Assembly (NCBI GenBank): GCA_036504055.1
Contig: DASXVU010000045.1
Span: 6,147 to 70,146, forward strand
Source of the DNA: Methanomassiliicoccales archaeon
Lineage (GTDB): Archaea; Thermoplasmatota; Thermoplasmata; Methanomassiliicoccales; UBA472
DNA: 64,000 nucleotides
Reading direction: 5' to 3'
In this document: positions 1 through 59,392 of the stretch, one piece after another
Layout of the letters: every line of letters begins with the position of its first letter
Position numbering within the stretch: the stretch's first letter is position 1
Notes under the pieces: generated by a model
What the model was told of the DNA's origin: nothing
What the model saw: only the letters and a program-made list of their open reading frames with translations
Databases searched by the model: none
Program-made: the position numbers and the translations under genes

Positions 1-2
1 AC

Positions 3-9276: not shown

Positions 9277-12101
<2,825 letters not shown>

Positions 12102-12432: not shown

Positions 12433-12975
12433 GTGATATCCGACATCGAGGCGGCGATTCTTGGTCTGCTTTGCGAGAGATCTCAATACGGATACGATCT
12501 GGACCGCACCATCGAAGAAAGAGGAATGCGCAACTGGACCCAAATAGGATTTTCCTCGATATATTACGTGCTAAAGCGCCTGGAAGGATCGGGACTTATC
12601 ACCAGCATTCTCGAGACGGTAGAGGGCAAACCTTCCCGGAGGATCTACACCGTAACCGATCTGGGAAGGACGGCAATGAAGGAGAAGATCGTCGATGTTC
12701 TGTCCAGATGCCCAAAGCTGGTCTCGCCGTTCGACCTGGGGCTGGCTAACATGGACATGCTCACCCGAGAAGAGGCGGTCGAATGCCTCACAAAGCATGT
12801 GGAAGCGTTGAACGAAAGGGCCCGGTTCTTGGAACGAGCTATCGCCGAGAGCATGGGACGGGGCGATCCTTATAGGGTGACCCTCCTGTTCGAGCTTCCC
12901 CTGGTCCATCTGGAAGCGGAGCGAGAATGCATTGACAGATTGATCGTTCGGTTAGAAGAGGGAGAAAGGTTGTAG
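12433..12975 (+). CDS. PadR-family transcriptional regulator
   Basis: A winged-helix PadR signature is present (ILGLLCERSQYGYDLDRTI...SSIYYVLKRLEGSGLITS...GKPSRRIYTVTDLG). The start is GTG, and an AT-rich TATA-like stretch lies immediately upstream. Confidence 0.85.
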   Translation: MISDIEAAILGLLCERSQYGYDLDRTIEERGMRNWTQIGFSSIYYVLKRLEGSGLITSILETVEGKPSRRIYTVTDLGRTAMKEKIVDVLSRCPKLVSPFDLGLANMDMLTREEAVECLTKHVEALNERARFLERAIAESMGRGDPYRVTLLFELPLVHLEAERECIDRLIVRLEEGERL

Positions 12976-12984
12976 GGCGATATC

Positions 12985-24776: not shown

Positions 24777-24908
24777 TTCAACACGTCCTAGTGCCGATAG
24801 TAGCAACTAGTATGTTAAGGGCATTTTTTCTGTTTATTTAGATGTACCGGACTTTGCCTCCAATTGTTTTCACAATCCTTAATATCCTCCTCCTGCCTCG
24901 GTCTGGAT

Positions 24909-32323: not shown

Positions 32324-35300
32324 TTAGACCTTGCGGATCCTCGTTACCACCATGATCACCACGACCACGACGATCAGGGCGATGACCAGGAGCAGTGGAA
32401 GCATGATCGTGTCGATCGTGCTCTTCTGCGCCTGGGCCGACACCGTCTGTGGTTGGCTTCCGTCTACCTTCTGCGAGATGACCTTACCGTCGACCGTGGC
32501 GTTCACCCAATACGGATCGGAGACGACCTGCCTTCCGTTCACATTCTGGGTCCATCCGGTCACGTCCGCCTGATACTGGCCATTGCTGCCGGTCACACCG
32601 CTGGAGATCAGTTTTCCGTGGGCGTCACAGATGGTGACCGGGGCTCCCGCGACCAGCTTTCCGTCGGCGTTCTTGACGATGACGGTGAACTGGTTGAGCC
32701 AGGTCATTGAGCCTATATCCTCTATCTTCAGCATCCCGTCCATGGTGGTGGAGGTGATGTTGGTCGTGCTGTTATGGATAGAGTAGACATCGAACTTCGA
32801 AGCGTTCAGCGCCGACTTGGATATGACCGCACTGGAGTCGTCCAGGAACACGGCGTCGTTCCTGCACTGTATGGCCGCTCCGTTCATGGTCAGCTTGGAG
32901 TTGATCGCGTATATGCCGTTGTACACGAACGTCGGTATGGTTATGTTCCTGCTGTCCAGGTTCTTGTTCAGCCACTGCAGGACGATAAGGTTCTCCTTGA
33001 CCGTGTCGCCGAAGGATATGGTCGAGTTCTCCGCATACACCGCGTAGCTCAGCATTCCATAGGTGTTGCCCTTGGCCGTCACGTCCGAGTTGATGGCATA
33101 CATACCCACGTGGTCGAGGAGCATCGGCATCAGGGAGGCCGGCAGGATGGATGAGGCCATCAGGTCGCTCGGGCTGTCCTTCAGGGTCAGGGAGGAGGTG
33201 TCCACATAGCTGAGCACCAAGGCCAGGAGCGTCGAGTACTTGGCCACATCGTCGACGATGCGGGCATATCCGATCTCGTTGTCCTCCACGGTCACTGCGC
33301 AGTTGAACAGGAATATCTCGTTCTTGTCCAACAGGAATATGTTGGCATGGATCTTGCCCACGACGCCCTCGGCGTAGATGCCGGCCACGGAGTTCAGGAC
33401 AAAGATGTTGTCAACCACGTTGTCCAGGTTCGAGTTCCTGGCGTAGATGCCGCGCTCGTTCTGCATTATTATGCAGCTCTTGATGTTCGGCTCCGACCCA
33501 TCGTTGACGAATATTCCATCCATACCGCTGGCCACGATCGTGGTCGAGGATATGGTTGGTTTAGCGCCATCGATGAATATGCCGTTCTTGTAGTTTCCCT
33601 GGATCGTACAGGAGGTTATCGATGCGGTCGACGTGTTGCCCAGGAATAGCTCGGACCACTCGCTCACCACTGAACTGGTCATCTGCAGGTTGCCATAGAC
33701 CAGGAACAGTCCGTTGCCGCTGTAGGAATACATATTGGAGTTCCTGACGATCTGAGATCCGCCGAGGTCAACGATCAGCTGGGTGAGGCCGTTGTCGGCC
33801 GCGCCAACGGTGAAAGAGTTCACGGAATCCACTGTAAGGATGCCGAAGGGCATGATCTCGATGGCGCCGAAGAACACCACGTCGCCGTCCTTCACGGATG
33901 CTGCGGAATCGATGATCCACTTGACCTGACTTCCGGAGGGCACGTTGATGCCGTGGGCGACGTTGTCCTGGAACACGCCGTTGTATAGCGTTACGGAGTT
34001 GCTGTCAGTGATGTACAGCCCATCGTTGGCATTGTGATCGATGGTGTTGTTGCCGATGACGATATGGGTTGAGGTGGTACAGTTGTCCAGGCTTATTCCG
34101 TTCCCCTGATTCTCGCTGAGCACGTTATTCTCAATGATCGCATTGCTGCCTTCCATGGAGATCGCCGATCCGTAGGTTCCGGTAACCCTGTTGCCGGACA
34201 CAAGGACCACTCCGGCCCCTGACCCGGTGACCTGGATACCGAACTGGCCATGGGACACGGTGTTATCGGCTATGGAAACCTGGGCGTTCACTGAGGCATG
34301 ACCGTTGAAGGACAAGGGATCGAAGGTCAGGAGTACGTTCGTGTTCACACCGACGCCGGTATTGGCATCGAGAACGATGTTGTTTCCAGCCACCCGGACC
34401 CCGGTCTTAAGGGTAACATTGCCATCCCAGTATCCGACCCCTTGGTTGTGGTTGACGAAGGTTATCCCGGTGTTGTCCATGCCCTTCATGTCCAACACAT
34501 TGTTGGACACGTTGATGTCGAAATCCACGAGCGCGCGAGCCTTAAGGTCTACGACCTTGACGTATGTCCTTTGCGCGTTATTGTTGAAGTAGACTCCAAA
34601 GTTCTCATTCCCCTTTGTCGAGATGGAGTTGCCCACGATGTTGAGGCCGCCATCGACCTTCAGCGAGGCCAGGCCCTTGGTGTGAGGGTAGGCATAGATG
34701 TCGCTGGTGAAGTAGTTGTACACATTGACGGCCCTGCTGTTGTTGCCCACCAGATCGATCGAGTTGGCCTGGAAGGTGATCGAACCCGAAAGAACAGTGG
34801 CGTTACCATCGATGCTTGCCGCATTCAGATTGTCGATGTTCATCTTGACGCCGTCGAGGAAGTTGCCTACCCCGATGATGTGGTTGTTGGCGATCGATTG
34901 GGTCCCGGCCTGCGCCCTAGCGCTGCCGCCATGGGTCGCATAGGAGGTCAGGTCCGGGTTGAACTCGATCCCACCGGCGTTGTTGCCGTTCAGTGTGACG
35001 GTGTTGCGCAGGACCTGGACATTGCCCAGGCTGGCATTTGCCCACTTGTCGCCCTGGTTTGAACCGGCGACGTCCGCGAACCCTCTGGCATAGTAGCTCA
35101 CATAGACACCGTTGTACGGTGACACAAGGAGGCTTAGGTTGGTCACCGTGACGCTGTTGTCGGCGACCAGGACGTTGCCAGTGTAGGATGCTGTGGTGGT
35201 CATCTTTGCAAGCTTAACCTCGGCATAGGCGCCGATGGCGACGGTGACCGCCGTTCGGTCATTCACCAACACGGTGTTGCCCGATACGCTGAAGTCCCCA

Positions 35301-37228
35301 TTGACCGTGCCTTTTGAGCTGTCATATGCGTTGACGTAGTTCCTGGCCAAAATGGCCACGTAATGCTCATCGACGATGTTGTTGCCAGAAAGGCTGACCG
35401 TACCGGACACGGTTCCGGTGGAGTTGCCAGTCACGGTTAGGGACCTTTCTATATCCATCGCATAGGAATTCGAGACCTGGAGCGTGTTGCCAGTGGACAG
35501 GATGTTGACGTTGGCCATTGTGGTGCCGTTGGCGGCTGCGTTGGGTGCGAACAGGATGGTTATCCCACCGTTCAAGGCATCCACCGCTTGGTTGTCGTTC
35601 ACGGTCACATCGCCGTTGGCGGTGATCGTGGACTTACCGTTGGACAGGTAGCTGATATTGATCGTCACAAGGTTCCGGCACGATGTGGCCAGGTTGTTCG
35701 TGATCAATATGCCACCATTTATGGATAGGCTTGAACCATCGACCGAGTTGAATCCTGAGCGGTCCACCTCGATCATCGTTCCCGAATCTTCATTGACTGT
35801 GTTCCTGGTCGCTGTCACGGAACCGGTGAACGAGGATGCTTTGGATCCGGCTGAGGTCATACGGTCATATACATAGAGACCCCGACCGGTGATCGTGGTC
35901 ATCACATTGTTCGTGAAGGATAGGTCTGAGTTGATCATGACCGAGGCTTTGGAGCTGGCCGCCGCGATTGCGGATGTGCTGACGTATGCTCCATTGACCG
36001 CATTGAATATCTTGTTGGAATCGAGGGTCACCGCTCCTGAGATGGCCGCGGTAGAGTCCTCGTAGGCGTTCATCTGTCTCTGGACCAATATCCCGTCGCC
36101 GGCGGAGGTGATGTTGTTCCTGGATATTGTGATCGGGACATTGATGCTGGAGGTCTTTTCTCCATAGGCAACGACCTGAGCGTATGCGGTGATTCCATAG
36201 GTCTGAACGCTCCTCATGTCGTTGTTCGAGATTTGAAGGTTGCCGGTAACGCTTGCTATGTTGTTGTGAACCATCAGCGGGCTGACCAGGTCATGGATGG
36301 TGACCAGGTCGGCGTACCCAACGGCCGGACCGCTGTTGAAGCGGTTGGTGTTGATTGTCGTGTCCCCGTTCACCTGTGAGGTAGAGTTGTCATAGGAATC
36401 CAGGGCATGGGAGAAAACCACCGCAGAACGCGCCCCTGTATTGAACTGGTTGTTGTTGATCATCACGTTGCTGTTGAGCGTTACAGCGGAATTGTCTCGA
36501 GACACCACATTCTCACTGATCATGATTCCCGAACCGGTCAATCCCGGTCCGAAATAGGAGCCGGTGATCGAGATCGGTACATTGATGGTCTTGATGTTGT
36601 TGGCGTCCGAAGAAACGGTTATTACACCATAGATGTGGTTAACGCCGCTCGAGGTTGAGGTGAAATCACAGTTCGTGACCGTCAATGTTCCATCCTTTGA
36701 AACGATCTGAAAATAAATGGAGCTGAACAGAGAGTTGGCGAACTTGGAGTTGGTGAAGACCCCGGTATTGTGGATCGTTATCTGGGTCTCATTGTTTATG
36801 TTGGCATAGTTCAGGTTGACGACGGAGTTCTCGTTGCCTGTGATCCCATTCCACATCGTTACGCTGTTGTTCTTGGTGAAGGTCACCATCTTGGACGCTT
36901 GGCCATTGGCCATCAAAGAACCGTTGACAATTATCTGTTGGCCGGGATCGACCTTGACTGCAACATTCGCGCCAATTGTGAGCGTCACTCCGGTTGGCAC
37001 TGTTACTGTCTGGTTGACGATATACGGCGAGCCGGCCTCGGTCCAGGTAGTGTCGGTAGATACGTCCTGATAGACATAGGTCGGTGCGGCATTAGCGCCA
37101 GAGGCGCTCAAAAGTAGCGCGAATGCGCAGACGATCAATAATGCCCCCGCAATGAGGAGACCTTTTCGTCTGGCAAGTTTTCCTAGTATCAACTGATCGG
37201 AGCTTTTATTATGCGAATACGTGCCCAT
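32324..37228 (-). CDS. Giant (1,634 aa) surface protein: signal/anchor N-terminus, long right-handed beta-helix (PbH1-type) region, Ig-like module, C-terminal TM anchor
   Basis: The N-terminal helix is LLIAGALLIVCAFALLLSASGANA. Hundreds of residues of N/G/T/S/V-rich coils follow (…VSGNRVTGTYGSAISMEGSNAIIENNVLSENQGNGISLDNC…). A late module reads ...VKNADGKLVAGAPVTICDAHGKLISSGVTGSNGQYQ. The C-terminus is LPLLLVIALIVVVVVIMVVTRIRKV. AGGAGGA lies directly upstream of the ATG. Confidence 0.8.
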   Translation of the reverse strand: MGTYSHNKSSDQLILGKLARRKGLLIAGALLIVCAFALLLSASGANAAPTYVYQDVSTDTTWTEAGSPYIVNQTVTVPTGVTLTIGANVAVKVDPGQQIIVNGSLMANGQASKMVTFTKNNSVTMWNGITGNENSVVNLNYANINNETQITIHNTGVFTNSKFANSLFSSIYFQIVSKDGTLTVTNCDFTSTSSGVNHIYGVITVSSDANNIKTINVPISITGSYFGPGLTGSGIMISENVVSRDNSAVTLNSNVMINNNQFNTGARSAVVFSHALDSYDNSTSQVNGDTTINTNRFNSGPAVGYADLVTIHDLVSPLMVHNNIASVTGNLQISNNDMRSVQTYGITAYAQVVAYGEKTSSINVPITISRNNITSAGDGILVQRQMNAYEDSTAAISGAVTLDSNKIFNAVNGAYVSTSAIAAASSKASVMINSDLSFTNNVMTTITGRGLYVYDRMTSAGSKASSFTGSVTATRNTVNEDSGTMIEVDRSGFNSVDGSSLSINGGILITNNLATSCRNLVTINISYLSNGKSTITANGDVTVNDNQAVDALNGGITILFAPNAAANGTTMANVNILSTGNTLQVSNSYAMDIERSLTVTGNSTGTVSGTVSLSGNNIVDEHYVAILARNYVNAYDSSKGTVNGDFSVSGNTVLVNDRTAVTVAIGAYAEVKLAKMTTTASYTGNVLVADNSVTVTNLSLLVSPYNGVYVSYYARGFADVAGSNQGDKWANASLGNVQVLRNTVTLNGNNAGGIEFNPDLTSYATHGGSARAQAGTQSIANNHIIGVGNFLDGVKMNIDNLNAASIDGNATVLSGSITFQANSIDLVGNNSRAVNVYNYFTSDIYAYPHTKGLASLKVDGGLNIVGNSISTKGNENFGVYFNNNAQRTYVKVVDLKARALVDFDINVSNNVLDMKGMDNTGITFVNHNQGVGYWDGNVTLKTGVRVAGNNIVLDANTGVGVNTNVLLTFDPLSFNGHASVNAQVSIADNTVSHGQFGIQVTGSGAGVVLVSGNRVTGTYGSAISMEGSNAIIENNVLSENQGNGISLDNCTTSTHIVIGNNTIDHNANDGLYITDSNSVTLYNGVFQDNVAHGINVPSGSQVKWIIDSAASVKDGDVVFFGAIEIMPFGILTVDSVNSFTVGAADNGLTQLIVDLGGSQIVRNSNMYSYSGNGLFLVYGNLQMTSSVVSEWSELFLGNTSTASITSCTIQGNYKNGIFIDGAKPTISSTTIVASGMDGIFVNDGSEPNIKSCIIMQNERGIYARNSNLDNVVDNIFVLNSVAGIYAEGVVGKIHANIFLLDKNEIFLFNCAVTVEDNEIGYARIVDDVAKYSTLLALVLSYVDTSSLTLKDSPSDLMASSILPASLMPMLLDHVGMYAINSDVTAKGNTYGMLSYAVYAENSTISFGDTVKENLIVLQWLNKNLDSRNITIPTFVYNGIYAINSKLTMNGAAIQCRNDAVFLDDSSAVISKSALNASKFDVYSIHNSTTNITSTTMDGMLKIEDIGSMTWLNQFTVIVKNADGKLVAGAPVTICDAHGKLISSGVTGSNGQYQADVTGWTQNVNGRQVVSDPYWVNATVDGKVISQKVDGSQPQTVSAQAQKSTIDTIMLPLLLVIALIVVVVVIMVVTRIRKV

Positions 37229-37295
37229 TCCTCCTAAATAATAAACAATTCAACAAAATGTATTCATTTAAGCTTATTCCTATAAATTCGAAGAA

Positions 37296-37325
37296 ATGAA
37301 TTAATGAATTTGAAAAGAATGAATT
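37296..37325. promoter_or_regulatory. Three direct copies of ATGAATT (plus an inverted ATTCAT at 37262-37267) in the AT-rich divergent promoter region
   Basis: Read directly from the sequence. The copies are at 37296-37302, 37304-37310 and 37319-37325. Confidence 0.3.
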
Positions 37326-37466
37326 GCTGGCCTGAGAGGTTGGGCACAACCTATGGCCGCTAAATTTTGATTATAATCGTTGATAATAATCTCGTCGACT
37401 GGGTCTCGTCCCGGTCTTTATCCCTTCTGATGACAACCGTTAAGGCAAGATTATCCATCTACGTTC

Positions 37467-38123
37467 GTGCACAAGATCAAGAGCATCGGCATGGAACACG
37501 ACGTGCTGGCGGAGAATGCCCACCTGGCGGAGCACAATCATGAGAGGCTGGTTGCCAAGGGCATCCGGTCGGTCGATGTTATGGGTTCGATCGGTTCCGG
37601 AAAGACGGCCATGATCATCAAGATGGCCACTCAGCTTAAGAAGAAGGGGATCGGGGTGGCGGTCATCGCCGGTGATGTGACCGGAGAGGATGATTACAGG
37701 CGGTTCAAAGAGGCAGGGATCGAGGCTTACAACGTCAACACCGGCAAGGAGTGCCATCTCGAGTCGAATTTGATAGAGCATACGTTGGACAAGATGGATC
37801 TGGACGGGATCGGTTTCATTTTCATCGAGAACGTCGGAAATCTGGTCTGCCCGGCCGATTTCCCGCTGGGAACGGATGTGAGGATGGTCGTCATATCGGT
37901 CACTGAGGGCGACGATATGGTGCGAAAGCATCCGATGATCTTCACCTCATCGGACGTGGCGGTGCTGAACAAGGTCGACCTGGCGGGTTATATGGAGGTC
38001 GATGTTGATGTGCTCAGATCGGACTATGCCAAGATAGTGGGGAACAAGCCGCTGTACCTCACCAGCGTCAAAACGGGTGAGGGCATTGAATCGGTCATGA
38101 AGGCCATCGGCGCCTCCAAATGA
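37467..38123 (+). CDS. hypB: Hydrogenase nickel-incorporation GTPase HypB
   Basis: The P-loop is GSIGSGKT. ENVGNLVCPA and NKVDL are also present. The start is GTG at 37467 or ATG at 37491. Confidence 0.9.
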   Translation: MHKIKSIGMEHDVLAENAHLAEHNHERLVAKGIRSVDVMGSIGSGKTAMIIKMATQLKKKGIGVAVIAGDVTGEDDYRRFKEAGIEAYNVNTGKECHLESNLIEHTLDKMDLDGIGFIFIENVGNLVCPADFPLGTDVRMVVISVTEGDDMVRKHPMIFTSSDVAVLNKVDLAGYMEVDVDVLRSDYAKIVGNKPLYLTSVKTGEGIESVMKAIGASK

Positions 38124-40244: not shown

Positions 40245-41021
40245 TCACTTCTTCTTGCGCGGCATCGGCCTGCGATAGACCAGGTACACCGCGATGATCA
40301 ACACGATCAACGCGACGTAGAGCAGGGCATTGGTCGTTCCAAAGCCGGCCTGGTTATAGAAGAAAGTGGTCGTCATGACCTTGCCTCCTTCTTCGAACCC
40401 TACGAACGTCCCGTTCGGATCGATGTCCACCCTCAATTCGTGGGACCCCGCGCCCAGGCTGGTGGTGGTCCAATTGTATTTGACCACCTTCGTCGACAAC
40501 GCATTGACCGTCACGCTGGCCACGTGGATCGGGTCCTTGTTGCTCGCGTAGTCAACATAGAAGTACACCGGAAGGTCGGTGACCGTCATATTACCGGTGT
40601 TCTTGATCGTGACGCTGAACACCACCGGGGCAATGACCTTCACGTTGAACTTCGTGTCATTGTTGTACGTGGTAACGGTCCCGTCCAAGTTGGTGGATGA
40701 GGCGAACACGTTGATGGTCAGGTCGCCGAGCACCTGCGGGGTGGTCAGGTTGAACTTGAAGACCCCGCTGCTCGATGAACTGGACCCGCTGTTGATCAGC
40801 GTGGCGTTGGTCGCCGCGAAACCGGTCATGGTCACCTTGCAGGCATATGTGCCGTTCGTTTCGGAGGCTGGGCCCCCCTGAACGGTGATCGTATACTGGG
40901 TAACCCCTCCCAGATTGACCACGTTCGGACCGCTTACGGTCGCCACGATCGTTGTGTCGGTCGCGCCCTGTACCGGCAGCACAAGCGTTGCCGCCACGAT
41001 CATGCACACTACCATTGCCAA
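40245..41021 (-). CDS. Secreted CARDB/Ig-like protein with a C-terminal TM anchor (258 aa)
   Basis: A short signal-like N-terminus is followed by a CARDB-like module (SVTIKNTGNMTVTDLPVYFYVDY...GAGSHELRVDIDPNG). The C-terminus is ALLYVALIVLIIAVYLVYRRPMPRKKK. The start is TTG at 41021 or ATG at 41015, which is 5-11 nt after the aglB stop. Confidence 0.7.
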   Translation of the reverse strand: MAMVVCMIVAATLVLPVQGATDTTIVATVSGPNVVNLGGVTQYTITVQGGPASETNGTYACKVTMTGFAATNATLINSGSSSSSSGVFKFNLTTPQVLGDLTINVFASSTNLDGTVTTYNNDTKFNVKVIAPVVFSVTIKNTGNMTVTDLPVYFYVDYASNKDPIHVASVTVNALSTKVVKYNWTTTSLGAGSHELRVDIDPNGTFVGFEEGGKVMTTTFFYNQAGFGTTNALLYVALIVLIIAVYLVYRRPMPRKKK

Positions 41022-41026
41022 CGAGA

Positions 41027-44000
41027 TCAGCGCTTTCTTCGTGTGAACACCCCCTTCTTCACGGTAAGGTAGATGAGGAGCACGAACAGCACCATCACCA
41101 ATGCCAGGAGAATCGTTGTTTCCAGGGTCAGGGTCGCCTGCGTGGATGACGTCTTATCGCCAGTCACGGCCAGACCGCTGCTCGGGATGTTGACCTTTGG
41201 CAGTTCGGGCGAGAACACGTAGTTGAATGACGTGCTGTCGTTACCCGCCGACTGGATAAGGATGCTCGCGGTCGGGTTCAGGGCCGGGGCGACCGACGTG
41301 GAGTTCGGCAGCATTGAGAACTCGATGTACTTGAAGCTCTGGCTGGTGACGGTAACGTTCACCTGGTCCACGTAGTTCCCGGTGCTCTTCAGGGACACGT
41401 CCCATCCCTGCGCCCTCAACGCATCCCTGTTGACGACCGATACGAAGTACGTGTCGTCGATGTTGCCGTTGTTGTTTATCTTGATCTGATACCGATAGTT
41501 CGTTCCGTTGTTGGCATAGACCTGCGCTTGAGTGGCGTTGACCTCGAAACGGGGCACGATCGTGACGTTGGCCAGTGTCGTCGCCACCACCGATGAGTCG
41601 TTGGCGGAGGTAGCGGTGAACGTTATCGAGTTCTGGGTGACCTTGACCGTCTTCGACGGGGTTATGGTCATCTGGACGGTCGTGACCCCGGTCGCACCGA
41701 AATCGAGGGTTACGCTGTTCTTCGACAACGTTATGTTCCAACCGGCCAGAGAGGCGGCCAAACTGTAAGTGTCGGCCAGATCACCGGTGTTGGTCACAGA
41801 GATGTTGTACACCGCTGTCTGGTTGGCGCTCAGGGTGGCCTTCTGGGACGGATCCCAATAGACCTTGACGCTGCGAGTGCTGGCGCGTTCCAGGACGATG
41901 TTGAGCAACGTATCCGCCGTCAGCGTCTGGGTGACGGTCTTGGTGTATGGGATGTTGGATCCCTGCTCTACCAGCGTCGTCGTCGCCTTCACATCATAGC
42001 TGCCAGCGGGAAGGAGGACGGAGTAAGTGCCATCCGGCGCGCTGCTGGCTGTCATGTTCCCGACGGAAGAGAAGGTCAGAACGGACTGCACCGGCAAGGC
42101 CCCAACCGAGGTGGTGCCATGGATCGTAAACCCAGGCACCAGCTGGATGTTCATTGTCTGGTTCAGGTAGCTCGTTACCGTGACCTTGCCCAGGAATGTT
42201 CCGCTCGTACCGCCGTTGGCATACGCACTGTATGTGCCAGGCGCGAGCTGGACATTGATGGAACCGGATGCCGTGGTATAGTTGGCCCATATCGCGGTAG
42301 GCGAATCGGGCGCGAAGCTTATCGTTCCGGACGCGGCCGTCGCTCCCACTCCGATCATTGTACCGGTCACTGTACTGTTATCGAACGACCTGACAGTGTC
42401 CAGATTCAACGGGAAGGTGACTGTTCCTACATTGATGGTTGCTGCGCCGGTGTACCTCAGGTAGCGGCTCAACCCATTGAGGGTGCCGAGCGTGTGCACA
42501 TCGACCCTGACGGTCAGCTGGCTCGAGGGCATGTATACCCCCAGATAACCAGTGGCGTTGGTCGTTGCGTTGTACGTCGCCCCGTTCGGAGAGCTGAAGG
42601 AAAGAGAGGCACTGGCATTCAGCTGCTTCCCTCCATTTTGGACCTGCACCTGCACCAGGCTTGCGGGCGAGGCGATCACGTCGTAAGCGCCAGGCCCAGT
42701 AACGGTGGTCGTGTTGAACAGCGCGAGATGACCGGCCGTCGAGCTGACGTCCGCATAGACCCCGTATACCCCGGACATGAGATAGATGCTGTACGCAGCC
42801 CCGGCGGCAAAGCTCTGTGTCCTGACGTCCTTGCCGGTAAATGTCAGCGTGGTGGCTCCGCCGGCGGAGACGCCTGTCACCAATACCCGTTCCACCACCG
42901 GCAGGCTGAGTGCCGTGGCATTCTGTCCGATGCGGATGGTCAGCGGAACGTTGCCCGCCTGCAGCTGGTATTGGTCATTGCTGTCGGTGGTCACGTTCTC
43001 GCTGATAGTGATGTTATACTGTCCGGGACGGACGCTCAACGTCAGATCCCCAGCGGCCGATGTGACCCCTTTGACCGTGATCGCGCCTTTGCCGACCGCG
43101 GTCAGCGTTACGGTCAACGGCTTCAACGGCGCTCCGCCGTTGAACGTAGTGGTCAGGGAAACGGTGCGGTTCGTCGGGACAAGCTTGATGTTGTTGACCG
43201 TAGAGGTGTTGAAATCAGCGTAGGTGACGCTGTAGGTCACATAGTTGATCAGCGACTCGGTCATGGTGTAGGTGCCATTGATCACCAAGGGCACGATGTA
43301 TGCCCCGGTGCTGTCGGTATAGAAGGTGACCTGTTCGCCCGCCTGGTTCGTAACCGTGATGGTCGCGTTCCCGATGCCTTCCGACGAACCCATGGACCCA
43401 TCGAAATTGGAGTCGAACCACACCTTACCAGAGAGCGTGACCGCGTTCACCATCGTGATGTTCTGCACACCGGTCCCAGGCAAGGTAAGGTCAGCCCAAT
43501 AGACCGAGGTGCTGCCTGCGTAAACATAGATCGAGTAGACCCCCGACGGGAGCAGTACCTTTGCTCCACCAGTCTGGTTTGATACCGCATAGACTGCGGC
43601 TGGGCTCGACTTTGACTTTATGACGAACTGAACCCCGTTCAGGGTGGCCGAGACCACCTGCAGGTTAGTGGCGGTCGCTTCCGCGAGAACCATGTTCTGA
43701 GTCACCGAGCCGGCGAGGCCGGTCACGTTGGCCAGAGCAACCAGCTGGACCCCTTTGACGGTGGCGAAAGAGTACACCGTGTAATTGTCAAGGGGCACCG
43801 TGATCGAATAGTCCCCGTTGGCGTTCGCTTCCGTCCAGATCTGCCTCTTGCCATTCATTATCTCGATCTGTGCGAACGGGATGGCGTTGCCATTATTGGA
43901 CGCGTGCCCGCTCACCGTCATCGCGGAGTATATCGTGAGCGCCTTGTTGAGCGTCTCACCGGCGGTCAGGCTGTAGGTCTGGCTTCCCAGGCTCATCAGG

Positions 44001-47000
44001 GAGCTGGCCGAGCTCAGAGAATAGTTGCCGGAGAACAGCAGATCATAGGTGAACTGACCGGCGGAGCTGGTCGTGGTGTTGATCAACCGACCAGTGGTAA
44101 GGTCCCTCAACTGGAGCTGGACATTCTGCGCCACATCGCCCGAGGGCAGCATGATGACGCCCTTTACCTGGGCCGGCTTGATCGCCAGATCTTTAGTGAT
44201 GTTGCCGTTCTTCGGGTTCAGGTCAACGGAAACGCTGCCGATGATGTGACCCTGGTATATGGCATACATGTTGACGGTGGCCGGGGGCAGACCAAGGAAC
44301 GAGTAACCGGTCGCGGTGCTTACCTGGCTCTTGAAGTAACCGGTGGTCTTGTTCTGCAGCACGACGGTGGCTCCGGTGATCAGGATGTCGGTCCCGACAT
44401 CGAACACCGAATCGCCGTCCCTGTCCCAGTATGCTTTACCGGACAGGCTGGCGGCGGTCAGATTGATATCGCCGTTGATCACCTTCTGATTTCCCCCCGC
44501 TCCGGTCGCTCCCATGGCCTCAGCATAGCTGATCGGATACGATTTGGTGGATATGATCGTGGCCAGTTGGGTCACGTTGTCCAGCGTGCCATAGCTGTAG
44601 GCGATGGTGGTGTTGCCGAACGGCGCGATTATGCTGTAGTTCCCGTTGGCGTCGGTCTTGACCGTCTGGTGCGGTATGCCGTACGGATAGTACGTCGGAT
44701 CCCGGTTATCGTCCAGGGCGGTCACGTAGACGTTCGGCATTGGTTCCTTGGTCTGTTCCGACAGCACGGTGCCAGATATCGTCACTCCGTCATAGTACTG
44801 GAGGAAGACGACAGCGCTGAACAATCCACCGGCGGACAGGTCGACCGTTCCGTTCATCTTGCCGGCACTTATCAAAGCCCTGTACTCCTGCCCCTGGGTA
44901 TAGTTGATGGCTACCCAGGAATCGGTGTGGTTGCTATAGTCGGTGTACGGATTGAAATAGGCCGTACGGTAGACCATCCTGAAATGGGTCATGTTCCAGC
45001 CTTGCATAGGCTGGTAATAGCTAAGGCTTCCGCTTATGCCTGGGATGCCCTGGCTAGTCAGACCGATGTCGTAAGGCCCGTAGCCCATGAAGGCGCGGTA
45101 CAACATCGTCTTGTAGAACAGCGGGGTATAGTGTATGGCGTAACTGACGATCGTCATCGATGATGTCACGTCCGCCAGCGCATGCTCGGTACCGTATTGG
45201 TCCACCGCGGTTATGGTGTAGTAGTCCAACGGTGCGTTCGACAGGGGATCGATCCTCTGATCCGACAACTTCGCCGGTGCGTAGAATATGTTCTGACTGG
45301 TGGCCGAGAATGGGAACAGACGGCTGTCTACCGCGAAATACCCGATGTTGTAGCCGGTCAGGCCGCGCAGGTCGTGGTAAAGCGATACCAGCTTGTTCTC
45401 GCCGATCTTGGACAGTTCGACCCGGGCGGCCGCATAGTATGCGTTCAACACAGAGAGGTCGGTATCGTATGGCCCATAGATGGCTGGATTGTTCTTGACC
45501 ACGTTGACATAGTCTGACGGCCGGTACAGGATGTGATACATCTCGTTGTAGTTGACACCGTAGGTCAGGAGCAGGTCAATCGCCGAACGGGACATATCGG
45601 TGCTGTTGCTCAGGCCAACCTTCTCGATTATCCTGGTCACCATCAGAGCGATCGCTCCGGTCTCGTTCGAGCACATCAGGAACGACCCGGCCACCTGATA
45701 TCCATTCTGGAAATTGTCAGCAACCGTCGGGTGGCCGCCCGCCTGTACTGCTTCAAATCCGTAATCCCACCATGAGATATAGGCGGGTCTTTCCAGAGGG
45801 TTCGCGATGCCGCTATCCCTTTCATTCAACCATGACCATGCCGCTGGGTAATAGGTCGTTGGCAACGGCAGATCATATGAGAAGGCTCCCAAGTACCAGG
45901 TTCCATTATTAAGGTCGTATTTCGACGGCTTTAGGAAGTCTGGTGTGGCCAGGTAGATCTGCTTATCGTATGTTTTCTTGGTCTGGTTAGGAATCCCCGC
46001 ATCTAGAGCGGTCCACGCGTTGGGCAGGATGACGAGACCTAGCACCACCAGGAACACGAACACGTGCCGGAACTTGATCGATTTGCGCAGGTTGCGCAGC
46101 AAGCTGCCCCGCGAACCGGCCATCGATTTGTAGAACTCGCTGAACTGGGCCCGTTCGATGATCAGCATCAGGATCCAGCCCGCCATCACGGCGAAGGCCG
46201 GCGTGGCGTTGAAAACGAACCTCCCCGCGGAGGCGGCCATGTAGATGGACACACCCGTCCATACGACAAGGAACACCAGGTACGGGGTCAGGTTCTTAGG
46301 GATCCTGACCGCTGCATAGCCGACCCCGAACAGGGCTAGCCAGAACGTGACCGCACCGAATGACAGTGCCAGCGTAGAGAACGCCGGTGCCGTCGCCTCA
46401 GATATGGTCGAGTACAACTTGCTCTTCACCAGGTATCCTTGGCCAGATACGATGGCGTTAAAGAAGTTCGGAGATACTATATAGAACGCGATCAGCGCGA
46501 TGACCGATATCGCCGCTATGACCGGAAGGGTGATGGTCCACGGGTAATCCCTGGTCACCACGAATATCATTCCAGCTATGACCGCGACCAGGAACATCTC
46601 CACCGGGGTATCGAGCCATGTCTGGACATAGTTCATCTGGATGTACAGCGGCGCCATCACCAGGAAGGCGACGGCGAACATGATGCCTATCGATGCCACA
46701 ACACCGAGGGAATCGGCGTTCCGGAATCGATCGACCAACAGCTGAACGATCAGATATGCCAGTATGATGATGAGGACATAGGTATAACCGGTCCAGATCA
46801 TAGCCACCAGCGCGACGCACACGCCTGCCAGGGCCGCATAGAGCATTGAAACGCCGTTCAAAGACCCAAAGGACCTTAGACCTTTTTTCACCTCTGAGAA
46901 ACTGCTCCATTTGGAGACCCACCTATCCCCTTTTATGGTCTGCAATGCACGAAGCAGGAAATAGAACGCGAACACCACGAAGAACAAGACCATTGCATCG

Positions 47001-47569
47001 TGGTCAGCATCGGAGAATATCGAACGTTCGATGTTGCCCGCCATCAGGGCGAACAGTAGTGCCGCCAATATCGCTGGCTTCTTCCCGAAGGCCGCCTTGG
47101 TGAGCAGGTAGACCGGGATGGTCGTCAGGGCGCCCCATATGGCCGTCGAGAACACCAGTGCGAAGCCGAGCCCGTCCGTCAATGTCATTCCCGTCACCGT
47201 ATGCAAGAACATACCGGCTACCGCGACCGACCAATCGTACAGAGGAGGCCTTTCGTTCCTGATCCCCCATGGATAGTTGAGCATGTTGTCCTGGACGACG
47301 TGCTGACCGGTATTCGCCACGTTGTCGATAACACGCTCGTGGTAGTACGAGTCAGAACCGCCGGAGACAAGGAAACCGTTGTCAACCGAGGTCGAGTATC
47401 CAAAGTAAGTCCTGACGAAAAAGGCCAGGAATACTATTAGCACGATGATGAGCGCCGTTTGCCAGTTTCTTCCCAGCCAGGTATTCGAGAATCTCGAATT
47501 CAGTCTGGAAATTCCTGCGGAACGCTTCTTCTCGGCAGGGCTTTTCGACCCTTCCTCTGATGATGCCAT
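41027..47569 (-). CDS. aglB: Archaeal oligosaccharyltransferase AglB (STT3 family) fused to a ~1,250-aa Ig-like/CarboxypepD_reg-like/CARDB-like extension with a terminal TM helix
   Basis: The N-terminal domain is polytopic. WWDYG lies at aa 600-604 (nt 45758-45772). TISE (TIXE-type) lies at aa 388-391. Acidic loop motifs are GGSDSYYHE and SDADHD. Repeated beta-sandwich modules run from ~aa 930. The C-terminus is ILLALVMVLFVLLIYLTVKKGVFTRRKR. Confidence 0.85.
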   Translation of the reverse strand: MASSEEGSKSPAEKKRSAGISRLNSRFSNTWLGRNWQTALIIVLIVFLAFFVRTYFGYSTSVDNGFLVSGGSDSYYHERVIDNVANTGQHVVQDNMLNYPWGIRNERPPLYDWSVAVAGMFLHTVTGMTLTDGLGFALVFSTAIWGALTTIPVYLLTKAAFGKKPAILAALLFALMAGNIERSIFSDADHDAMVLFFVVFAFYFLLRALQTIKGDRWVSKWSSFSEVKKGLRSFGSLNGVSMLYAALAGVCVALVAMIWTGYTYVLIIILAYLIVQLLVDRFRNADSLGVVASIGIMFAVAFLVMAPLYIQMNYVQTWLDTPVEMFLVAVIAGMIFVVTRDYPWTITLPVIAAISVIALIAFYIVSPNFFNAIVSGQGYLVKSKLYSTISEATAPAFSTLALSFGAVTFWLALFGVGYAAVRIPKNLTPYLVFLVVWTGVSIYMAASAGRFVFNATPAFAVMAGWILMLIIERAQFSEFYKSMAGSRGSLLRNLRKSIKFRHVFVFLVVLGLVILPNAWTALDAGIPNQTKKTYDKQIYLATPDFLKPSKYDLNNGTWYLGAFSYDLPLPTTYYPAAWSWLNERDSGIANPLERPAYISWWDYGFEAVQAGGHPTVADNFQNGYQVAGSFLMCSNETGAIALMVTRIIEKVGLSNSTDMSRSAIDLLLTYGVNYNEMYHILYRPSDYVNVVKNNPAIYGPYDTDLSVLNAYYAAARVELSKIGENKLVSLYHDLRGLTGYNIGYFAVDSRLFPFSATSQNIFYAPAKLSDQRIDPLSNAPLDYYTITAVDQYGTEHALADVTSSMTIVSYAIHYTPLFYKTMLYRAFMGYGPYDIGLTSQGIPGISGSLSYYQPMQGWNMTHFRMVYRTAYFNPYTDYSNHTDSWVAINYTQGQEYRALISAGKMNGTVDLSAGGLFSAVVFLQYYDGVTISGTVLSEQTKEPMPNVYVTALDDNRDPTYYPYGIPHQTVKTDANGNYSIIAPFGNTTIAYSYGTLDNVTQLATIISTKSYPISYAEAMGATGAGGNQKVINGDINLTAASLSGKAYWDRDGDSVFDVGTDILITGATVVLQNKTTGYFKSQVSTATGYSFLGLPPATVNMYAIYQGHIIGSVSVDLNPKNGNITKDLAIKPAQVKGVIMLPSGDVAQNVQLQLRDLTTGRLINTTTSSAGQFTYDLLFSGNYSLSSASSLMSLGSQTYSLTAGETLNKALTIYSAMTVSGHASNNGNAIPFAQIEIMNGKRQIWTEANANGDYSITVPLDNYTVYSFATVKGVQLVALANVTGLAGSVTQNMVLAEATATNLQVVSATLNGVQFVIKSKSSPAAVYAVSNQTGGAKVLLPSGVYSIYVYAGSTSVYWADLTLPGTGVQNITMVNAVTLSGKVWFDSNFDGSMGSSEGIGNATITVTNQAGEQVTFYTDSTGAYIVPLVINGTYTMTESLINYVTYSVTYADFNTSTVNNIKLVPTNRTVSLTTTFNGGAPLKPLTVTLTAVGKGAITVKGVTSAAGDLTLSVRPGQYNITISENVTTDSNDQYQLQAGNVPLTIRIGQNATALSLPVVERVLVTGVSAGGATTLTFTGKDVRTQSFAAGAAYSIYLMSGVYGVYADVSSTAGHLALFNTTTVTGPGAYDVIASPASLVQVQVQNGGKQLNASASLSFSSPNGATYNATTNATGYLGVYMPSSQLTVRVDVHTLGTLNGLSRYLRYTGAATINVGTVTFPLNLDTVRSFDNSTVTGTMIGVGATAASGTISFAPDSPTAIWANYTTASGSINVQLAPGTYSAYANGGTSGTFLGKVTVTSYLNQTMNIQLVPGFTIHGTTSVGALPVQSVLTFSSVGNMTASSAPDGTYSVLLPAGSYDVKATTTLVEQGSNIPYTKTVTQTLTADTLLNIVLERASTRSVKVYWDPSQKATLSANQTAVYNISVTNTGDLADTYSLAASLAGWNITLSKNSVTLDFGATGVTTVQMTITPSKTVKVTQNSITFTATSANDSSVVATTLANVTIVPRFEVNATQAQVYANNGTNYRYQIKINNNGNIDDTYFVSVVNRDALRAQGWDVSLKSTGNYVDQVNVTVTSQSFKYIEFSMLPNSTSVAPALNPTASILIQSAGNDSTSFNYVFSPELPKVNIPSSGLAVTGDKTSSTQATLTLETTILLALVMVLFVLLIYLTVKKGVFTRRKR

Positions 47570-47688
47570 CTATATTCTCCTGAGGAAAACTAGCAGTTGA
47601 TGCAGAACGAGCTATTAAAACCTTAGTCCAAATATTTGGCATTTATCTCTATTGTCTGGATAGGACAATACTGACCCTTTGCGAAGAC

Positions 47689-48339
47689 CTAATTTTTCAG
47701 ATGTTTGATTTCTTCGATGTATCGGCCCGCTGCCGCTCTCGGGTCCGGGTCACCATAGATCGCCCGGCCCACGATGACGTAATCTGCACCCATCTCAAGC
47801 GCTTTTGTGGCAGAACCGCCCTGGGCCCCAACACCGGGGGACAATATCGAGAGGTTCGGTCCGATGATCTGCCTAATGGCCCTGACCCTTTCCGGACGGG
47901 TGGCCGGTGCGATGACCCCGGAAGCGCCGCAGTCCACCGCTATCCTTGCCAGCCTCTCTGCCGCCGGTGCGGTGAACTCCAATCCGCCCGGGTGGCTCAT
48001 TTCCGTGACCACATAGATATCCTTGCCATCGGCGGCCTCTACCGCTGCCTTGACCGAATCGCTTCCGGTGAACGCATGGACAATGACCCCGGAAGCACCA
48101 CGTCTTACCGCCTCGGAGACGATGAGCCTGTTGGTGTTCGGTATGTCCGCTACCTTGAAATCGCAGACCACCTCCGAAGAACGGGAAAGCCTGGTGATGA
48201 TCTCGGGTGAGGTTGAAAGGACAAGAGGCCAATTGATCTTTATGGCGTCGACCAGGTCGCCTACCGCTTCGGCCACATCCATGGCCTTACGCTCGTCTGT
48301 CTCGTCCAACGCCAGAATGAGCCTCGACCTTTTCCGCAT
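47689..48339 (-). CDS. pyrF: Orotidine 5'-phosphate decarboxylase
   Basis: Blocks LILALD, ...DFKVADIPNT... and the length of 216 aa support the call. Confidence 0.9.
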   Translation of the reverse strand: MRKRSRLILALDETDERKAMDVAEAVGDLVDAIKINWPLVLSTSPEIITRLSRSSEVVCDFKVADIPNTNRLIVSEAVRRGASGVIVHAFTGSDSVKAAVEAADGKDIYVVTEMSHPGGLEFTAPAAERLARIAVDCGASGVIAPATRPERVRAIRQIIGPNLSILSPGVGAQGGSATKALEMGADYVIVGRAIYGDPDPRAAAGRYIEEIKHLKN

Positions 48340-57400: not shown

Positions 57401-58075
57401 CTTCGTGCCGTAGCGCTCGTTGTACTCGACCATGACACGGTTAGGCGCAAGGTCCTCAAGGGTGATCAGGACCCTCTCTGTTCCGCCGATTATGAAATAT
57501 CCACCGGGGTCCATGGGGTCCTCGCCGGCCTTCATCAGGCGCTGGCTGTACTCATGGTCGTTGATCTCCCTCTCCTGCTCCATGTTCTCTTTGTAGAGGG
57601 TGCACTTCTTTGACTTGACCATGACCGGCAGGTCACCGATGTGGACCCTTTCCGGCTCCTTCTCGATGCCGTCCTCGACGACAGTAAAATCCAGATAGAC
57701 TGGGGCCAGATAGTTCAGGTTCCTGAGCCTGGCCTCCATCGGGGTGAGGTCGTGGACGTAACCGTTCGCCTCGCGGACGACCGGCAGCCCGACATGTATG
57801 GTCGGACGAGACTGGTTGTCGATGTTCCCAGTTTTCTCATCCCGCTTCCTTCCGACGCGGATCTCCACGATCCTGCCATCGGTCTTGTCCGGGTCGAGCC
57901 TGATGAACCCTCGGTCCAGGTCCTCCGCCGACACACGCAGGTTGTCGACGATCTTCTGCATCCTGCTGTTCGGGTTGTCCAACGTCGACAGGAAGTCGTC
58001 AAAGCTGGAGATATGATGATTTACAATGCTTCTTTCTTTGAAATAGAGTTCGACTAGGTCACGCAACGAATTCAC
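54476..58075 (-). CDS. rpoB: DNA-directed RNA polymerase subunit B (unsplit Rpo2)
   Basis: A single 1,199-aa ORF carries the B'' and B' regions together (…[13 protein letters not shown]…, [14 protein letters not shown]-terminal Zn ribbon CGHMA...CPVCG). Confidence 0.95.
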
Positions 58076-58344
58076 CCTCTGACAACTAAGCGATAGGCAA
58101 CGGTGGTCTCCGCGGTCGCGCTTCGGCGCACGATCTTGACCACTCTTCCCTCGGTGATAGGGCCCTCAAGGTTCTCCAGAAGCCTGATGCAGGCGTCTCC
58201 CTTTCGGATCTTCGGCAACTGGTCCTTCTGAATCCTCAAGGAGGCCAGTACCTTCTTGGTTTCCTCGTCCGATAACAAATAATGCTCTGGCACGAGGTCG
58301 TGCTCTAAGACGTTAAACTGTACAGTGTCGACCATAGCTATCAC
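58072..58344 (-). CDS. rpoH: DNA-directed RNA polymerase subunit H (Rpo5)
   Basis: [18 protein letters not shown]...[13 protein letters not shown] is typical of RpoH. A GAGGTGA Shine-Dalgarno-like sequence precedes the ATG. Confidence 0.9.
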
Positions 58345-58390
58345 CTCGACGAAATTAAGCCCGGACCTTCTTTCATACTAAGTAGCGGCC

Positions 58391-58399
58391 TTATAAAAA
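58391..58399 (-). promoter_or_regulatory. TATA-box-like element (TTTTTATAA on the minus strand) for the rpoH-rpoB-rpoA operon
   Basis: It lies ~50 nt upstream of the rpoH ATG, between tRNA-Lys and rpoH. Confidence 0.45.
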
Positions 58400-58481
58400 T
58401 GCATCGGAATCTCTCGAAACGGATGTTCACTTTTCGATCTCCCATGTCGTTTCTTTGCCTACGCAAGCGGGCCTGAAGGGA

Positions 58482-58511
58482 TTTTCGACATGACGGAGTT
58501 ACCGTCTATGA
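58482..58511 (-). other. Predicted tRNA intron 2 (30 nt, after T-loop position 59)
   Basis: The RNA is U-CAUAGACGG-UAACU-CCGUCAUG-U-CGAA-AA. A 4-bp UUCG/CGAA helix is flanked by AAU bulges, with an inner hairpin. Splicing restores the T-loop UUCGAAU. Confidence 0.6.
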
Positions 58512-58550
58512 TTCGAACCCTTGGCCAGCTGGTTAAAAGCCAGCTGCTCT

Positions 58551-58579
58551 TTCTAGGGACGCATGTTGCCATACGTCCT
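58551..58579 (-). other. Predicted tRNA intron 1 (29 nt, after D-loop position 20)
   Basis: The RNA is A-GGACGUAUG-GCAA-CAUGCGUCC-CUAG-AA. It forms a 9-bp hairpin with a GNRA loop. A 4-bp CUAG/CUAG helix is flanked by 3-nt GUA and AAA bulges, which is bulge-helix-bulge-like. The junction may slide by 1-2 nt. Confidence 0.6.
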
Positions 58580-58801
58580 ACCTAGCTGAGCTACAGGCCC
58601 TTGGTAGGTATGCCGGCGTGCAGAGCCGAGAGAATCCGGTGCCGTTATTTAATCTTTCTCTTCAACCCAAGGAAAACCAAAAGCTAACCTAGGTTTCCGA
58701 CATGTCAAGTGTCGATATGCTATCATTATCGATAGTCTAGATGAGAACTTATTTGTTTGCGATGTCATAGAATGATTAATTGCTATCTTTGGAATCCCAC
58801 C

Positions 58802-58813
58802 TATATATTTATA
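58802..58813 (+). promoter_or_regulatory. TATA-box-like element (tatatatttata) for the Zn-ribbon / aEF-1beta pair
   Basis: It lies ~35 nt upstream of the ATG at 58845, which is consistent with a near-leaderless transcript. Confidence 0.45.
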
Positions 58814-58844
58814 CAAGAAGTCTAATCTCGCACGAGCGATTGCT

Positions 58845-59012
58845 ATGGAGAATGAGAAAGTCTGCAGCTCATGCGGCAAGAGATTGACCGGAAAGGGTAT
58901 CACCTTCTTCAAGTGCCCCCAGTGTGGTGTCACCGAGATCGGGAGATGCTCCAACTGCCGCGACCAGAGTGTAAAGTATAAGTGTGACAAGTGTGGGTTC
59001 ACCGGACCTTAA
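58845..59012 (+). CDS. Four-CxxC zinc-ribbon microprotein (55 aa; COG2888 / HVO_2753-like), absent from the supplied ORF track
   Basis: My translation is MENEKVCSSCGKRLTGKGITFFKCPQCGVTEIGRCSNCRDQSVKYKCDKCGFTGP*. It has four CxxC pairs and sits 11 nt upstream of aEF-1beta, the position conserved in many archaea. Confidence 0.75.
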   Translation: MENEKVCSSCGKRLTGKGITFFKCPQCGVTEIGRCSNCRDQSVKYKCDKCGFTGP

Positions 59013-59023
59013 GGGTGTTTCAC

Positions 59024-59290
59024 ATGGGACAGGTCGCCGCCGTTCATCACCTAATGCCAGACTCTACCGACTTCGACCTTGAAGGACTATCGAAGAAACT
59101 TCCGACCATCGTCCCAGAAGGGGTTAAGGTCGTCCGGTCCGAGGTCAAGCCGCTCGCCTTTGGGTTGAGCATGCTCGAGGTAACCACGATCATGCTAGAC
59201 TCTGGAGGCTTGATCGAGAAGCTAGAAGAAACCTACCGCTCAGTGGAAGGTATCCAGAACGTTGAGACGGTGGAGGTCGGCCTCATCTGA
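59024..59290 (+). CDS. Translation elongation factor aEF-1 beta
   Basis: This is an 88-aa protein (MGQVAAVHHLMPDSTDFDLEGL...VKPLAFGLSMLEV...VEGIQNVETVEVGLI). The start was moved to the ATG at 59024. Confidence 0.85.
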   Translation: MGQVAAVHHLMPDSTDFDLEGLSKKLPTIVPEGVKVVRSEVKPLAFGLSMLEVTTIMLDSGGLIEKLEETYRSVEGIQNVETVEVGLI

Positions 59291-59392
59291 GGCTGACCCA
59301 TAAATGACTTTGAACAATACTGTAATAAACTCAGGAGACCCGTCTGCGCATGCAGAGGGGCCCATTTCCCTGTTTTGGAGCACCTCCCGACC

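Follow-up and report, generated by a model that had tools for sequence, protein, structure and literature searches.

A giant AglB with a stalk of near-invariant length, a predicted second membrane anchor and a conserved partner gene in Methanomassiliicoccales and related Thermoplasmata

The 64,000-nucleotide (nt) window analyzed here, a stretch of DNA from a Methanomassiliicoccales archaeon, carries a gene for a 2,180-residue protein in which the catalytic core of AglB, the archaeal oligosaccharyltransferase (OST), continues into a stalk of about 1,200 amino acids (aa) and a predicted second membrane anchor, and which is followed directly by a gene for a 256-aa protein. This long form of AglB is the norm in Methanomassiliicoccales and related Thermoplasmata, and hence is lineage-typical. 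The sequences are already public; what is newly noted is the near-invariant length of the stalk, the recurrence of the C-terminal anchor in nearly all homologues and the strict co-location of the partner gene. As a whole, the data appear best explained by a lineage-specific giant AglB with a scaffold or spacer stalk of fixed length and a partner protein, predicted to be an active N-oligosaccharyltransferase that transfers a lipid-linked glycan to the Asn of N-x-S/T sequons, and we consider this explanation to be on balance the probable one. Its identity as an AglB and its membrane topology, taken jointly, form a part of that explanation which we hold with high confidence.

The giant AglB is encoded by one uninterrupted open reading frame (ORF), with an ATG start and 2,180 codons plus the stop codon, and an identical protein (P0001), from a Methanomassiliicoccales metagenome-assembled genome (MAG), is present in NCBI/JGI:

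41027..47569, minus strand: whole gene of the giant AglB (ORF and translation)

A search of 5.8 billion proteins matched at least 120 clusters, nearly all of 2,140-2,230 aa, with 98-100% query coverage and 34-83% identity. Full-length homologues number at least 107 (2,100-2,230 aa, 34-100% identity); they include a protein of the cultured Methanomassiliicoccus luminyensis (P0097, 2,173 aa), and further homologues sit on contigs of 1.8-2.5 Mb. Scanning one genome per GTDB species gave at least 554 relatives, and the locus counts reported below are taken from the best 80 of these. The 80 loci belong to Methanomassiliicoccaceae, Methanomethylophilaceae and other Thermoplasmata or Thermoplasmatota MAGs, with record titles that name soil, fen, sediment, digester and rumen/gut samples; five of the records are titled chromosomes, and contigs of 1.4-2.6 Mb are among the loci. 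The long form is found in every one of the 80 where the contig allows, once per locus and beside a conserved downstream neighbor, and none of them shows a split-gene version. Among more divergent matches are forms of 2,200-2,400 aa, ten named matches of this kind coming from Thermoplasmata, Thermoplasmatota, Methanobacteriota or Euryarchaeota MAGs. In five divergent long forms (P0160, P0180, P0196, P0207 and P0211; 2,330-2,400 aa) the stalk starts at about aa 1117-1173, about 150-200 residues later, which implies that additional residues are inserted within the catalytic globular domain or ahead of it. An initial, sequence-only reading of the window (hereafter the first-pass annotation) had implied that the architecture was unique, which cannot be maintained, since the same long form is already deposited across Methanomassiliicoccales and Thermoplasmata. 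The proteins bear only automatically assigned labels, such as 'STT3 domain-containing protein', 'carboxypeptidase regulatory-like domain-containing protein', 'glycosyltransferase family 39 protein' and now and then 'AglB', and in the literature we found no description of an AglB of ~2,200 aa, of the second anchor or of the partner gene.

The recurrence of the long form also bears on whether core and stalk might have been joined artificially, by a frameshift or a mis-join between two genes, which the first-pass annotation had wanted to see excluded. A few MAG homologues do carry frameshifts, none of which we count as support for such an artefact. The explanation is ruled out by the presence of the same continuous ORF in more than 100 independent assemblies, among them contigs of 1.4-2.6 Mb, several of which are titled chromosomes, and the source of the M. 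luminyensis protein, and its probability is practically nil. The gene is in a single frame in 76 of the 80 species-representative loci, and the breaks seen elsewhere are scattered along the gene, none being located at the core/stalk junction. The junction is itself conserved and free of gaps, with Y925, Y926, G928, G933 and D953 invariant. Broken ORFs were noted at scattered positions (L030, L031, L066, L069, L010, several long-read bins), and P0105, on a 2.45-Mb contig, ends in out-of-frame sequence; such interruptions look like sequencing frameshifts and not like true split genes.

By its transmembrane domain, acidic motifs, TIXE and WWDYG motifs and fold, the protein is an AglB/STT3 (GT-C, CAZy GT66). 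The elements of the core are the following, invariance being given for the alignment of the 107 homologues, and structure prediction having been done with AlphaFold2 (AF2):

45995..47569, minus strand: N-terminal polytopic membrane domain, aa 1-525, ~13 transmembrane helices, STT3 / GT-C fold (Pfam, hydropathy, AF2, Foldseek)
47336..47362, minus strand: first acidic loop motif GGSDSYYHE, aa 70-78, with catalytic D73 (G70-Y75 invariant, 107/107)
46997..47014, minus strand: second acidic motif SDADHD, aa 186-191 (D189, H190 and D191 invariant, 107/107)
46397..46408, minus strand: TIXE motif TISE, aa 388-391 (T388, I389 and E391 invariant, 107/107)
45758..45772, minus strand: WWDYG motif, aa 600-604 (WWDYGFE invariant, 107/107)
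44783..45994, minus strand: extracytoplasmic catalytic globular domain, aa 526-929 (PDB sequence matches, AF2 local confidence)

Pfam detects STT3 at aa 40-512 (E=4.5e-18), and the hydropathy peaks agree with a polytopic N-terminal domain of ~13 transmembrane helices. By sequence the closest solved relative is AglB-L of A. fulgidus (3WAJ, E=7e-18 with phmmer). The globular domain (aa 526-929), which gave no Pfam match when scanned alone, has PDB sequence matches to the AglB C-terminal domains 3vgp and 3vu0. An AF2 model of aa 1-1000, built from an alignment of 36 diverse homologues, reached a predicted local distance difference test score (pLDDT) of 85 and a predicted template-modeling score (pTM) of 0.83, the catalytic globular domain being mostly at pLDDT 80-95. 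With this model as query, Foldseek ranked AfAglB-L (7e9s) best (E=5e-26, template-modeling (TM) score 0.66 on the target), followed by human STT3A/B and yeast Stt3 and then by PglB. Pfam, AF2, Foldseek and the invariant motifs thus all confirm the first-pass annotation in its recognition of a complete STT3/AglB core within the 2,180-aa ORF, and the four motifs do lie where it had placed them, WWDYG having been recomputed to the same nucleotides (45758-45772). The invariance of D73, D189-H190-D191, T388-I389-x-E391 and WWDYGFE indicates that the active site is under purifying selection. As for the DK/MI Ser/Thr pocket, no conserved DxxK was seen C-terminal to WWDYG, and conservation is poor around an MYHI at aa 677-680; 3WAJ can be aligned by sequence only as far as aa 624.

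TIGR04154, the NCBIfam model for archaeal STT3, aligns with aa 40-1016 (E=2.6e-64). The score of 218 bits does not reach the curated cut-off of 450 bits and is far below it; the giant AglB belongs to a separate AglB subfamily. Since the match reaches aa 1016 and covers the first stalk domain (aa 930-1016), the part that is truly extra is about aa 1017-2180. The first-pass annotation had counted everything from about aa 930 as additional; it was right about where the stalk starts, and right that the stalk continues from the core in the same frame (the stalk peptides that it quoted are found in the translation), and overestimated only how much of it is extra.

The stalk can be described as follows:

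41195..44782, minus strand: stalk, 13 beta-sandwich domains, aa 930-2125 (AF2, per-domain Pfam scans, NCBIfam)
Stalk domains 1-11 (D1-D11): prealbumin / CarboxypepD_reg-like overall
Stalk domains 1-4, 6 and 11: CarboxypepD_reg / prealbumin-like (per-domain Pfam scans)
Stalk domain 6: additionally SdrD_B-like (per-domain Pfam scans)
Stalk domains 12 and 13: FixG_C / CARDB / choice-of-anchor-T-like (per-domain Pfam scans)
Stalk domains 5, 8, 9 and 10: no family at E<=0.05 (per-domain Pfam scans)

In the whole protein, Pfam finds five CarboxypepD_reg stretches, the first at aa 930; the NCBIfam choice-of-anchor-T model (choice_anch_T) matches aa 1900-2067 (E=3.5e-12), and matches to SdrD_B stay below the cut-off (27 versus 29.7 bits). 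A second AF2 model, of aa 926-2125 and separate from that of the core, is all-beta with a pLDDT of 88.3 and shows 13 consecutive beta-sandwich domains; the first-pass annotation had thus recognized the nature of these modules correctly and set their number, 'roughly ten', too low. The pTM of this model is only 0.47, which implies that the single domain folds are modeled confidently and their mutual arrangement is not. No global fold match was obtained for the stalk, Foldseek returning only generic proteins with multiple immunoglobulin-like domains at a TM score of ~0.1, such as alpha-2-macroglobulin, complement C5 and the B. anthracis TIE protein.

The most telling feature of the stalk is the constancy of its length in the face of rapid sequence drift. 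Identity across the family is 50-70% in the core and only ~30% in the stalk, yet the stalk measures 1,172-1,221 aa in all 107 homologues, at stalk identities of 25-100%, and the gap fraction does not exceed 6% in any 50-aa window of the alignment except aa 951-1000, which lies in stalk domain 1 and where it is 0.15. The residues that are invariant in the stalk are mostly Gly, Tyr, Pro and Trp, and we read these positions as fold-maintaining. A fixed length and domain count combined with fast divergence point to a structural scaffold or spacer rather than to a ligand-binding adhesin. The first-pass annotation had called the stalk 'adhesin-like', in which case it would present a binding surface for hosts, partner cells or particles, the OST being merely tethered to it. 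The domain families concerned, CarboxypepD_reg, SdrD_B, SpaA-like and CARDB, are indeed typical of bacterial and archaeal adhesin-like proteins, and the Foldseek match to the B. anthracis TIE protein goes in the same direction. Adhesins with variable repeats, however, do not show such a fixed length and locus. Moreover, the gene occurs once per locus at a conserved locus in samples ranging from soil to rumen and gut, no conserved motif resembling a ligand-binding site was seen among the invariant stalk residues, and both ends of the stalk are predicted to be membrane-anchored, which would leave no free tip. We therefore do not retain the term, and regard an adhesin role as quite unlikely.

An exhaustive phmmer search with aa 981-2180 against 1.84 billion representatives returned 111 proteins at E<=1e-30, all of them long-form AglBs or apparent contig-end fragments, and revealed no free-standing stalk gene; unrelated multi-repeat proteins share with the stalk no more than its last two, CARDB-like, domains.

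That the stalk is rich in sequons, as the first-pass annotation had noticed, holds against a composition-preserving control: it contains 37, compared with 20.4 +/- 3.8 in shuffled sequences (z about 4.4), and across the family the median is 21 where 12 are expected (median z 2.7). It is probable that the stalk is glycosylated by its own enzyme. One could go further and assume that this is its main purpose, the stalk being glycosylated in cis so that cells lacking a wall are densely covered with glycans anchored through the enzyme, with geometry of minor importance. The sequon enrichment beyond composition in a stalk that is in addition N/S/T-rich is in line with such a glycocalyx, as is the report that the cultured relative M. 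alvi has neither S-layer nor cell wall (PMC10673518). Most sequon positions nevertheless drift, those that are kept being N1731 (106 of 107 homologues), N859 (103) and N555 (92), and z is below 2 in ~40% of the homologues. A mere carrier of glycans would also tolerate indels and domain loss, contrary to the nearly invariant length of the stalk, and it is improbable that an enzyme with a catalytic task is present in the amounts that the main coat would require. The glycan-carrier reading is possible as a partial truth that leaves the length invariance without explanation; as the principal function of the stalk we judge it unlikely.

Beyond the last beta-sandwich domain the chain ends in the following elements:

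41060..41122, minus strand: C-terminal transmembrane helix, ~aa 2150-2170 (hydropathy, homologues)
41030..41059, minus strand: predicted cytoplasmic basic tail KKGVFTRRKR, aa 2171-2180 (consensus in Methanomassiliicoccales)

The hydrophobic 19-mer at aa 2152-2170 has a Kyte-Doolittle value of 2.96 and is followed directly by KKGVFTRRKR. A C-terminal transmembrane helix with a K/R tail is present in 106 of the 107 homologues, the sole exception being annotated as partial, and the tail consensus ..KGVFxRRKR is kept across Methanomassiliicoccales, all of which bears out the second anchor and RRKR end described in the first-pass annotation. The last 70 aa match no CTERM sorting-signal model at E<=10, and a PGF motif is absent from the sequence, so there is no PGF-CTERM/archaeosortase signal. 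From the count of 13 + 1 transmembrane helices and the positive-inside rule we predict that both termini face the cytoplasm. In that case the ~1,200 aa of the stalk, N-glycosylated, would make an arch or hairpin on the external side of the cytoplasmic membrane, and by our own estimate of ~4 nm per domain its contour length would be ~50 nm.

It could also be that the two anchors lie in different membranes, the N-terminal domain in an inner and the C-terminal helix in an outer one, so that the stalk spans a pseudo-periplasm and sets its width. A fixed length would suit such a molecular ruler, M. luminyensis has been reported to have an outer electron-dense layer or membrane with a thick transparent layer between (PMC4243693), and for the eukaryotic protein NOMO a role in determining how wide the endoplasmic reticulum (ER) lumen is has been proposed (PMC11186639). 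The basic tail that follows the C-terminal helix, on the other hand, points to the cytoplasm under the positive-inside rule. Moreover, no machinery that would insert proteins into an archaeal outer membrane is known to us. The long form is furthermore found in Methanomethylophilaceae MAGs (L038, L067), and M. alvi, a cultured member of that family, shows a single membrane by cryo-electron microscopy (PMC10673518). An inter-membrane tether thus seems highly unlikely.

A further alternative to an intact doubly anchored chain is that one precursor is cleaved near aa 930-1020, giving an AglB of normal size and a surface protein anchored by its C terminus. Taken by itself the stalk is laid out like type-I archaeal surface proteins, such as the proteins of 256 and 1,634 aa encoded nearby, and we found nothing that supports processing directly. 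The junction is highly conserved and has no linker or low-complexity segment, domain 1 is part of the confident AF2 model that contains the catalytic domain (pTM 0.83) and lies inside the TIGR04154 match, and stand-alone stalk genes are not found, the shorter database matches looking like contig-end fragments. Processing of this kind we consider very unlikely.

The giant AglB does not stand alone in its locus. Beginning 12 nt past its stop codon, on the same strand, lies a gene that we regard as its partner:

40245..41015, minus strand: conserved partner gene, 256 aa, with signal peptide, two beta-sandwich domains (CARDB), C-terminal transmembrane helix and tail YRRPMPRKKK (Pfam, synteny)

Its CARDB match has E=8.4e-7 (Pfam). 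A homologue is found directly downstream and on the same strand in 64 of the 64 loci that have at least 900 nt of downstream sequence, so that the conserved unit is a two-gene module, and all 62 partner homologues extracted end in a transmembrane helix and a basic tail. The family comprises proteins of ~250-266 aa that are annotated only as 'hypothetical' or 'CARDB', the named matches all being from Thermoplasmata or Thermoplasmatota MAGs. Two possible relationships of the partner were considered and rejected: a paralogous relationship to the C-terminal domains of the stalk is not significant in BLASTP (E=0.21), and a profile search of the PDB for a link to known OST subunits gave only generic CARDB-like structures. 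The partner gene is probably co-transcribed with that of the giant AglB, which appears to have its own promoter. An A/T-rich element, AAGGTTTTAATAG, lies ~40 nt upstream of the AglB ATG (47570-47700, minus strand) and could be an archaeal TATA box. The remaining neighbors are housekeeping genes (pyrF, a radical SAM gene, translin, purD, gatD/gatE and RNA polymerase subunits), and the neighborhood has no agl glycosyltransferase cluster.

Elsewhere in the window two NosD / right-handed beta-helix proteins are encoded on the minus strand, at 32324-37228 (1,634 aa) and 23073-24806 (577 aa). The larger one has a signal peptide, 25 sequons, a C-terminal transmembrane helix and a basic tail, a layout which suggests that C-terminal transmembrane anchoring is the general mode for the surface glycoproteins of this organism. 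A GvpD-like P-loop protein (gas-vesicle regulator family) is encoded at 6894-8411 on the plus strand, and the G+C content falls to 0.48-0.52, from a background of 0.55-0.61, at 1-4000, 12001-14000, 36001-38000 and 58001-60000.

How the two-gene module may work can be sketched from these features. The stalk may hold the enzyme in a set position relative to its partner and substrates, as a scaffold or spacer of fixed length that builds or organizes the glycoprotein envelope in lineages for which the cultured members studied are reported to have no S-layer, and the 256-aa downstream protein may be a subunit or assembly partner of the giant AglB. Several points weigh against assigning the stalk this role. 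An intact variant of 1,685 aa (P0104), in which an acidic low-complexity linker stands in place of the middle stalk domains, makes clear that the length constraint is not absolute. The geometry of the stalk is equally ambiguous, as arch, rod and compact bundle are indistinguishable at a pTM of 0.47. Expression, glycosylation, topology and the uncleaved state are all predictions from sequence, and the scaffold or spacer role is read solely from the conservation pattern; for that role taken by itself we would claim no more than a tentative, somewhat less than even, likelihood. P0104 keeps the last CARDB-like pair, the transmembrane helix and an RRRKR tail, which shows that within the stalk it is the C-terminal end that can less easily be dispensed with. 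A physical coupling of the OST, by way of the stalk, to a scaffold at the cell surface or to a substrate, as the first-pass annotation had proposed, is speculative.

One may go beyond the scaffold or spacer reading and suppose that the giant AglB and the 256-aa protein constitute an unrecognized multi-component archaeal OST and envelope module, with the stalk as a ruler or spacer that sets the thickness of a glycoprotein envelope or pseudo-periplasm in S-layer-less Thermoplasmata. Thermoplasmatales have been reported to be without S-layer (PMC12448462). We give this extended proposal a small chance of being correct. If it were true, the module would be a functional counterpart, and conceivably a distant domain-level relative, of two eukaryotic elements, NOMO and the accessory beta-sandwich subunits of the OST, and would contradict the textbook view of the archaeal OST as a single subunit. 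In any case, a large group of Archaea, which includes methanogens of the human gut and of the rumen, uses an AglB of twice the usual size. Envelope organization in this group is poorly understood, and the giant AglB module is a concrete and testable candidate for an envelope-organizing element; should the stalk turn out to be a dispensable decoration, it would remain a curiosity of domain architecture.

In the usual account, archaeal N-glycosylation is carried out by an AglB of 500-1,100 aa that stands alone. With AfAglB-L (3WAJ, 5GMY, 7E9S) and other characterized AglBs the giant AglB shares the 13-helix GT-C domain, the acidic motifs, TIXE, WWDYG and the external globular domain. Whereas AfAglB-L has 868 aa and ends with the soluble domain, the giant AglB goes on for ~1,160 residues (domains 2-13) and has in addition a second transmembrane helix, a predicted cytoplasmic tail and a partner gene. 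The best-scoring curated family, TIGR04154 ('oligosaccharyl transferase, archaeosortase A system-associated'), covers the core and the first beta-sandwich domain, and the giant AglB differs from it in falling below its cut-off and in having no PGF-CTERM or archaeosortase signal. Domain families are also held in common with proteins of the SdrD-type B-repeat / CarboxypepD_reg kind and with archaeal adhesin-like proteins. These occur in multiple copies, carry a variable number of repeats and have one anchored and one free, ligand-binding end, in contrast to the AglB stalk, which is of fixed length, found once per locus, predicted to be anchored at both ends and fused to an enzyme.

A striking likeness in overall layout is that to NOMO, a component of the BOS complex in the ER multipass translocon (9C7V), which has ~1,200 aa in ~12 tandem prealbumin/transthyretin-like domains on the non-cytoplasmic side, one C-terminal transmembrane helix and a short tail. 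The best PDB match of the family profile is human NOMO2 (E=2.6e-22), and the Pfam models NOMO_2nd/3rd/5th/9th match giant AglB homologues. The matches are not colinear, one stalk region aligning to NOMO residues 144-240, 271-568 and 901-1080, and NOMO_5th matching at aa ~1208, ~1476, ~1633 and ~1805 in four different homologues; as a control, a Gram-positive SdrD/LPXTG protein is matched by the NOMO-domain models as well. Orthology with NOMO is not supported on these two grounds, and the likeness is one of a repeated-domain family and an analogy of architecture. NOMO, which associates with Nicalin and TMEM147, is moreover free-standing with its own signal peptide, whereas the AglB stalk is fused to STT3 and has none of its own.

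A comparable analogy can be drawn with the non-catalytic subunits of the eukaryotic OST. Ribophorins and OST48/Wbp1 are type-I proteins with lumenal beta-sandwich domains and one transmembrane helix, and both the C-terminal part of the stalk and the 256-aa partner would similarly place a beta-sandwich ectodomain with a single C-terminal transmembrane helix beside an STT3-type enzyme. No sequence relationship between the giant AglB module and the eukaryotic OST subunits was detected, and the resemblance is offered at the level of layout. In this sense nature itself has here joined an OST physically to non-catalytic beta-sandwich modules, much as in the OST and translocon complexes of eukaryotes.

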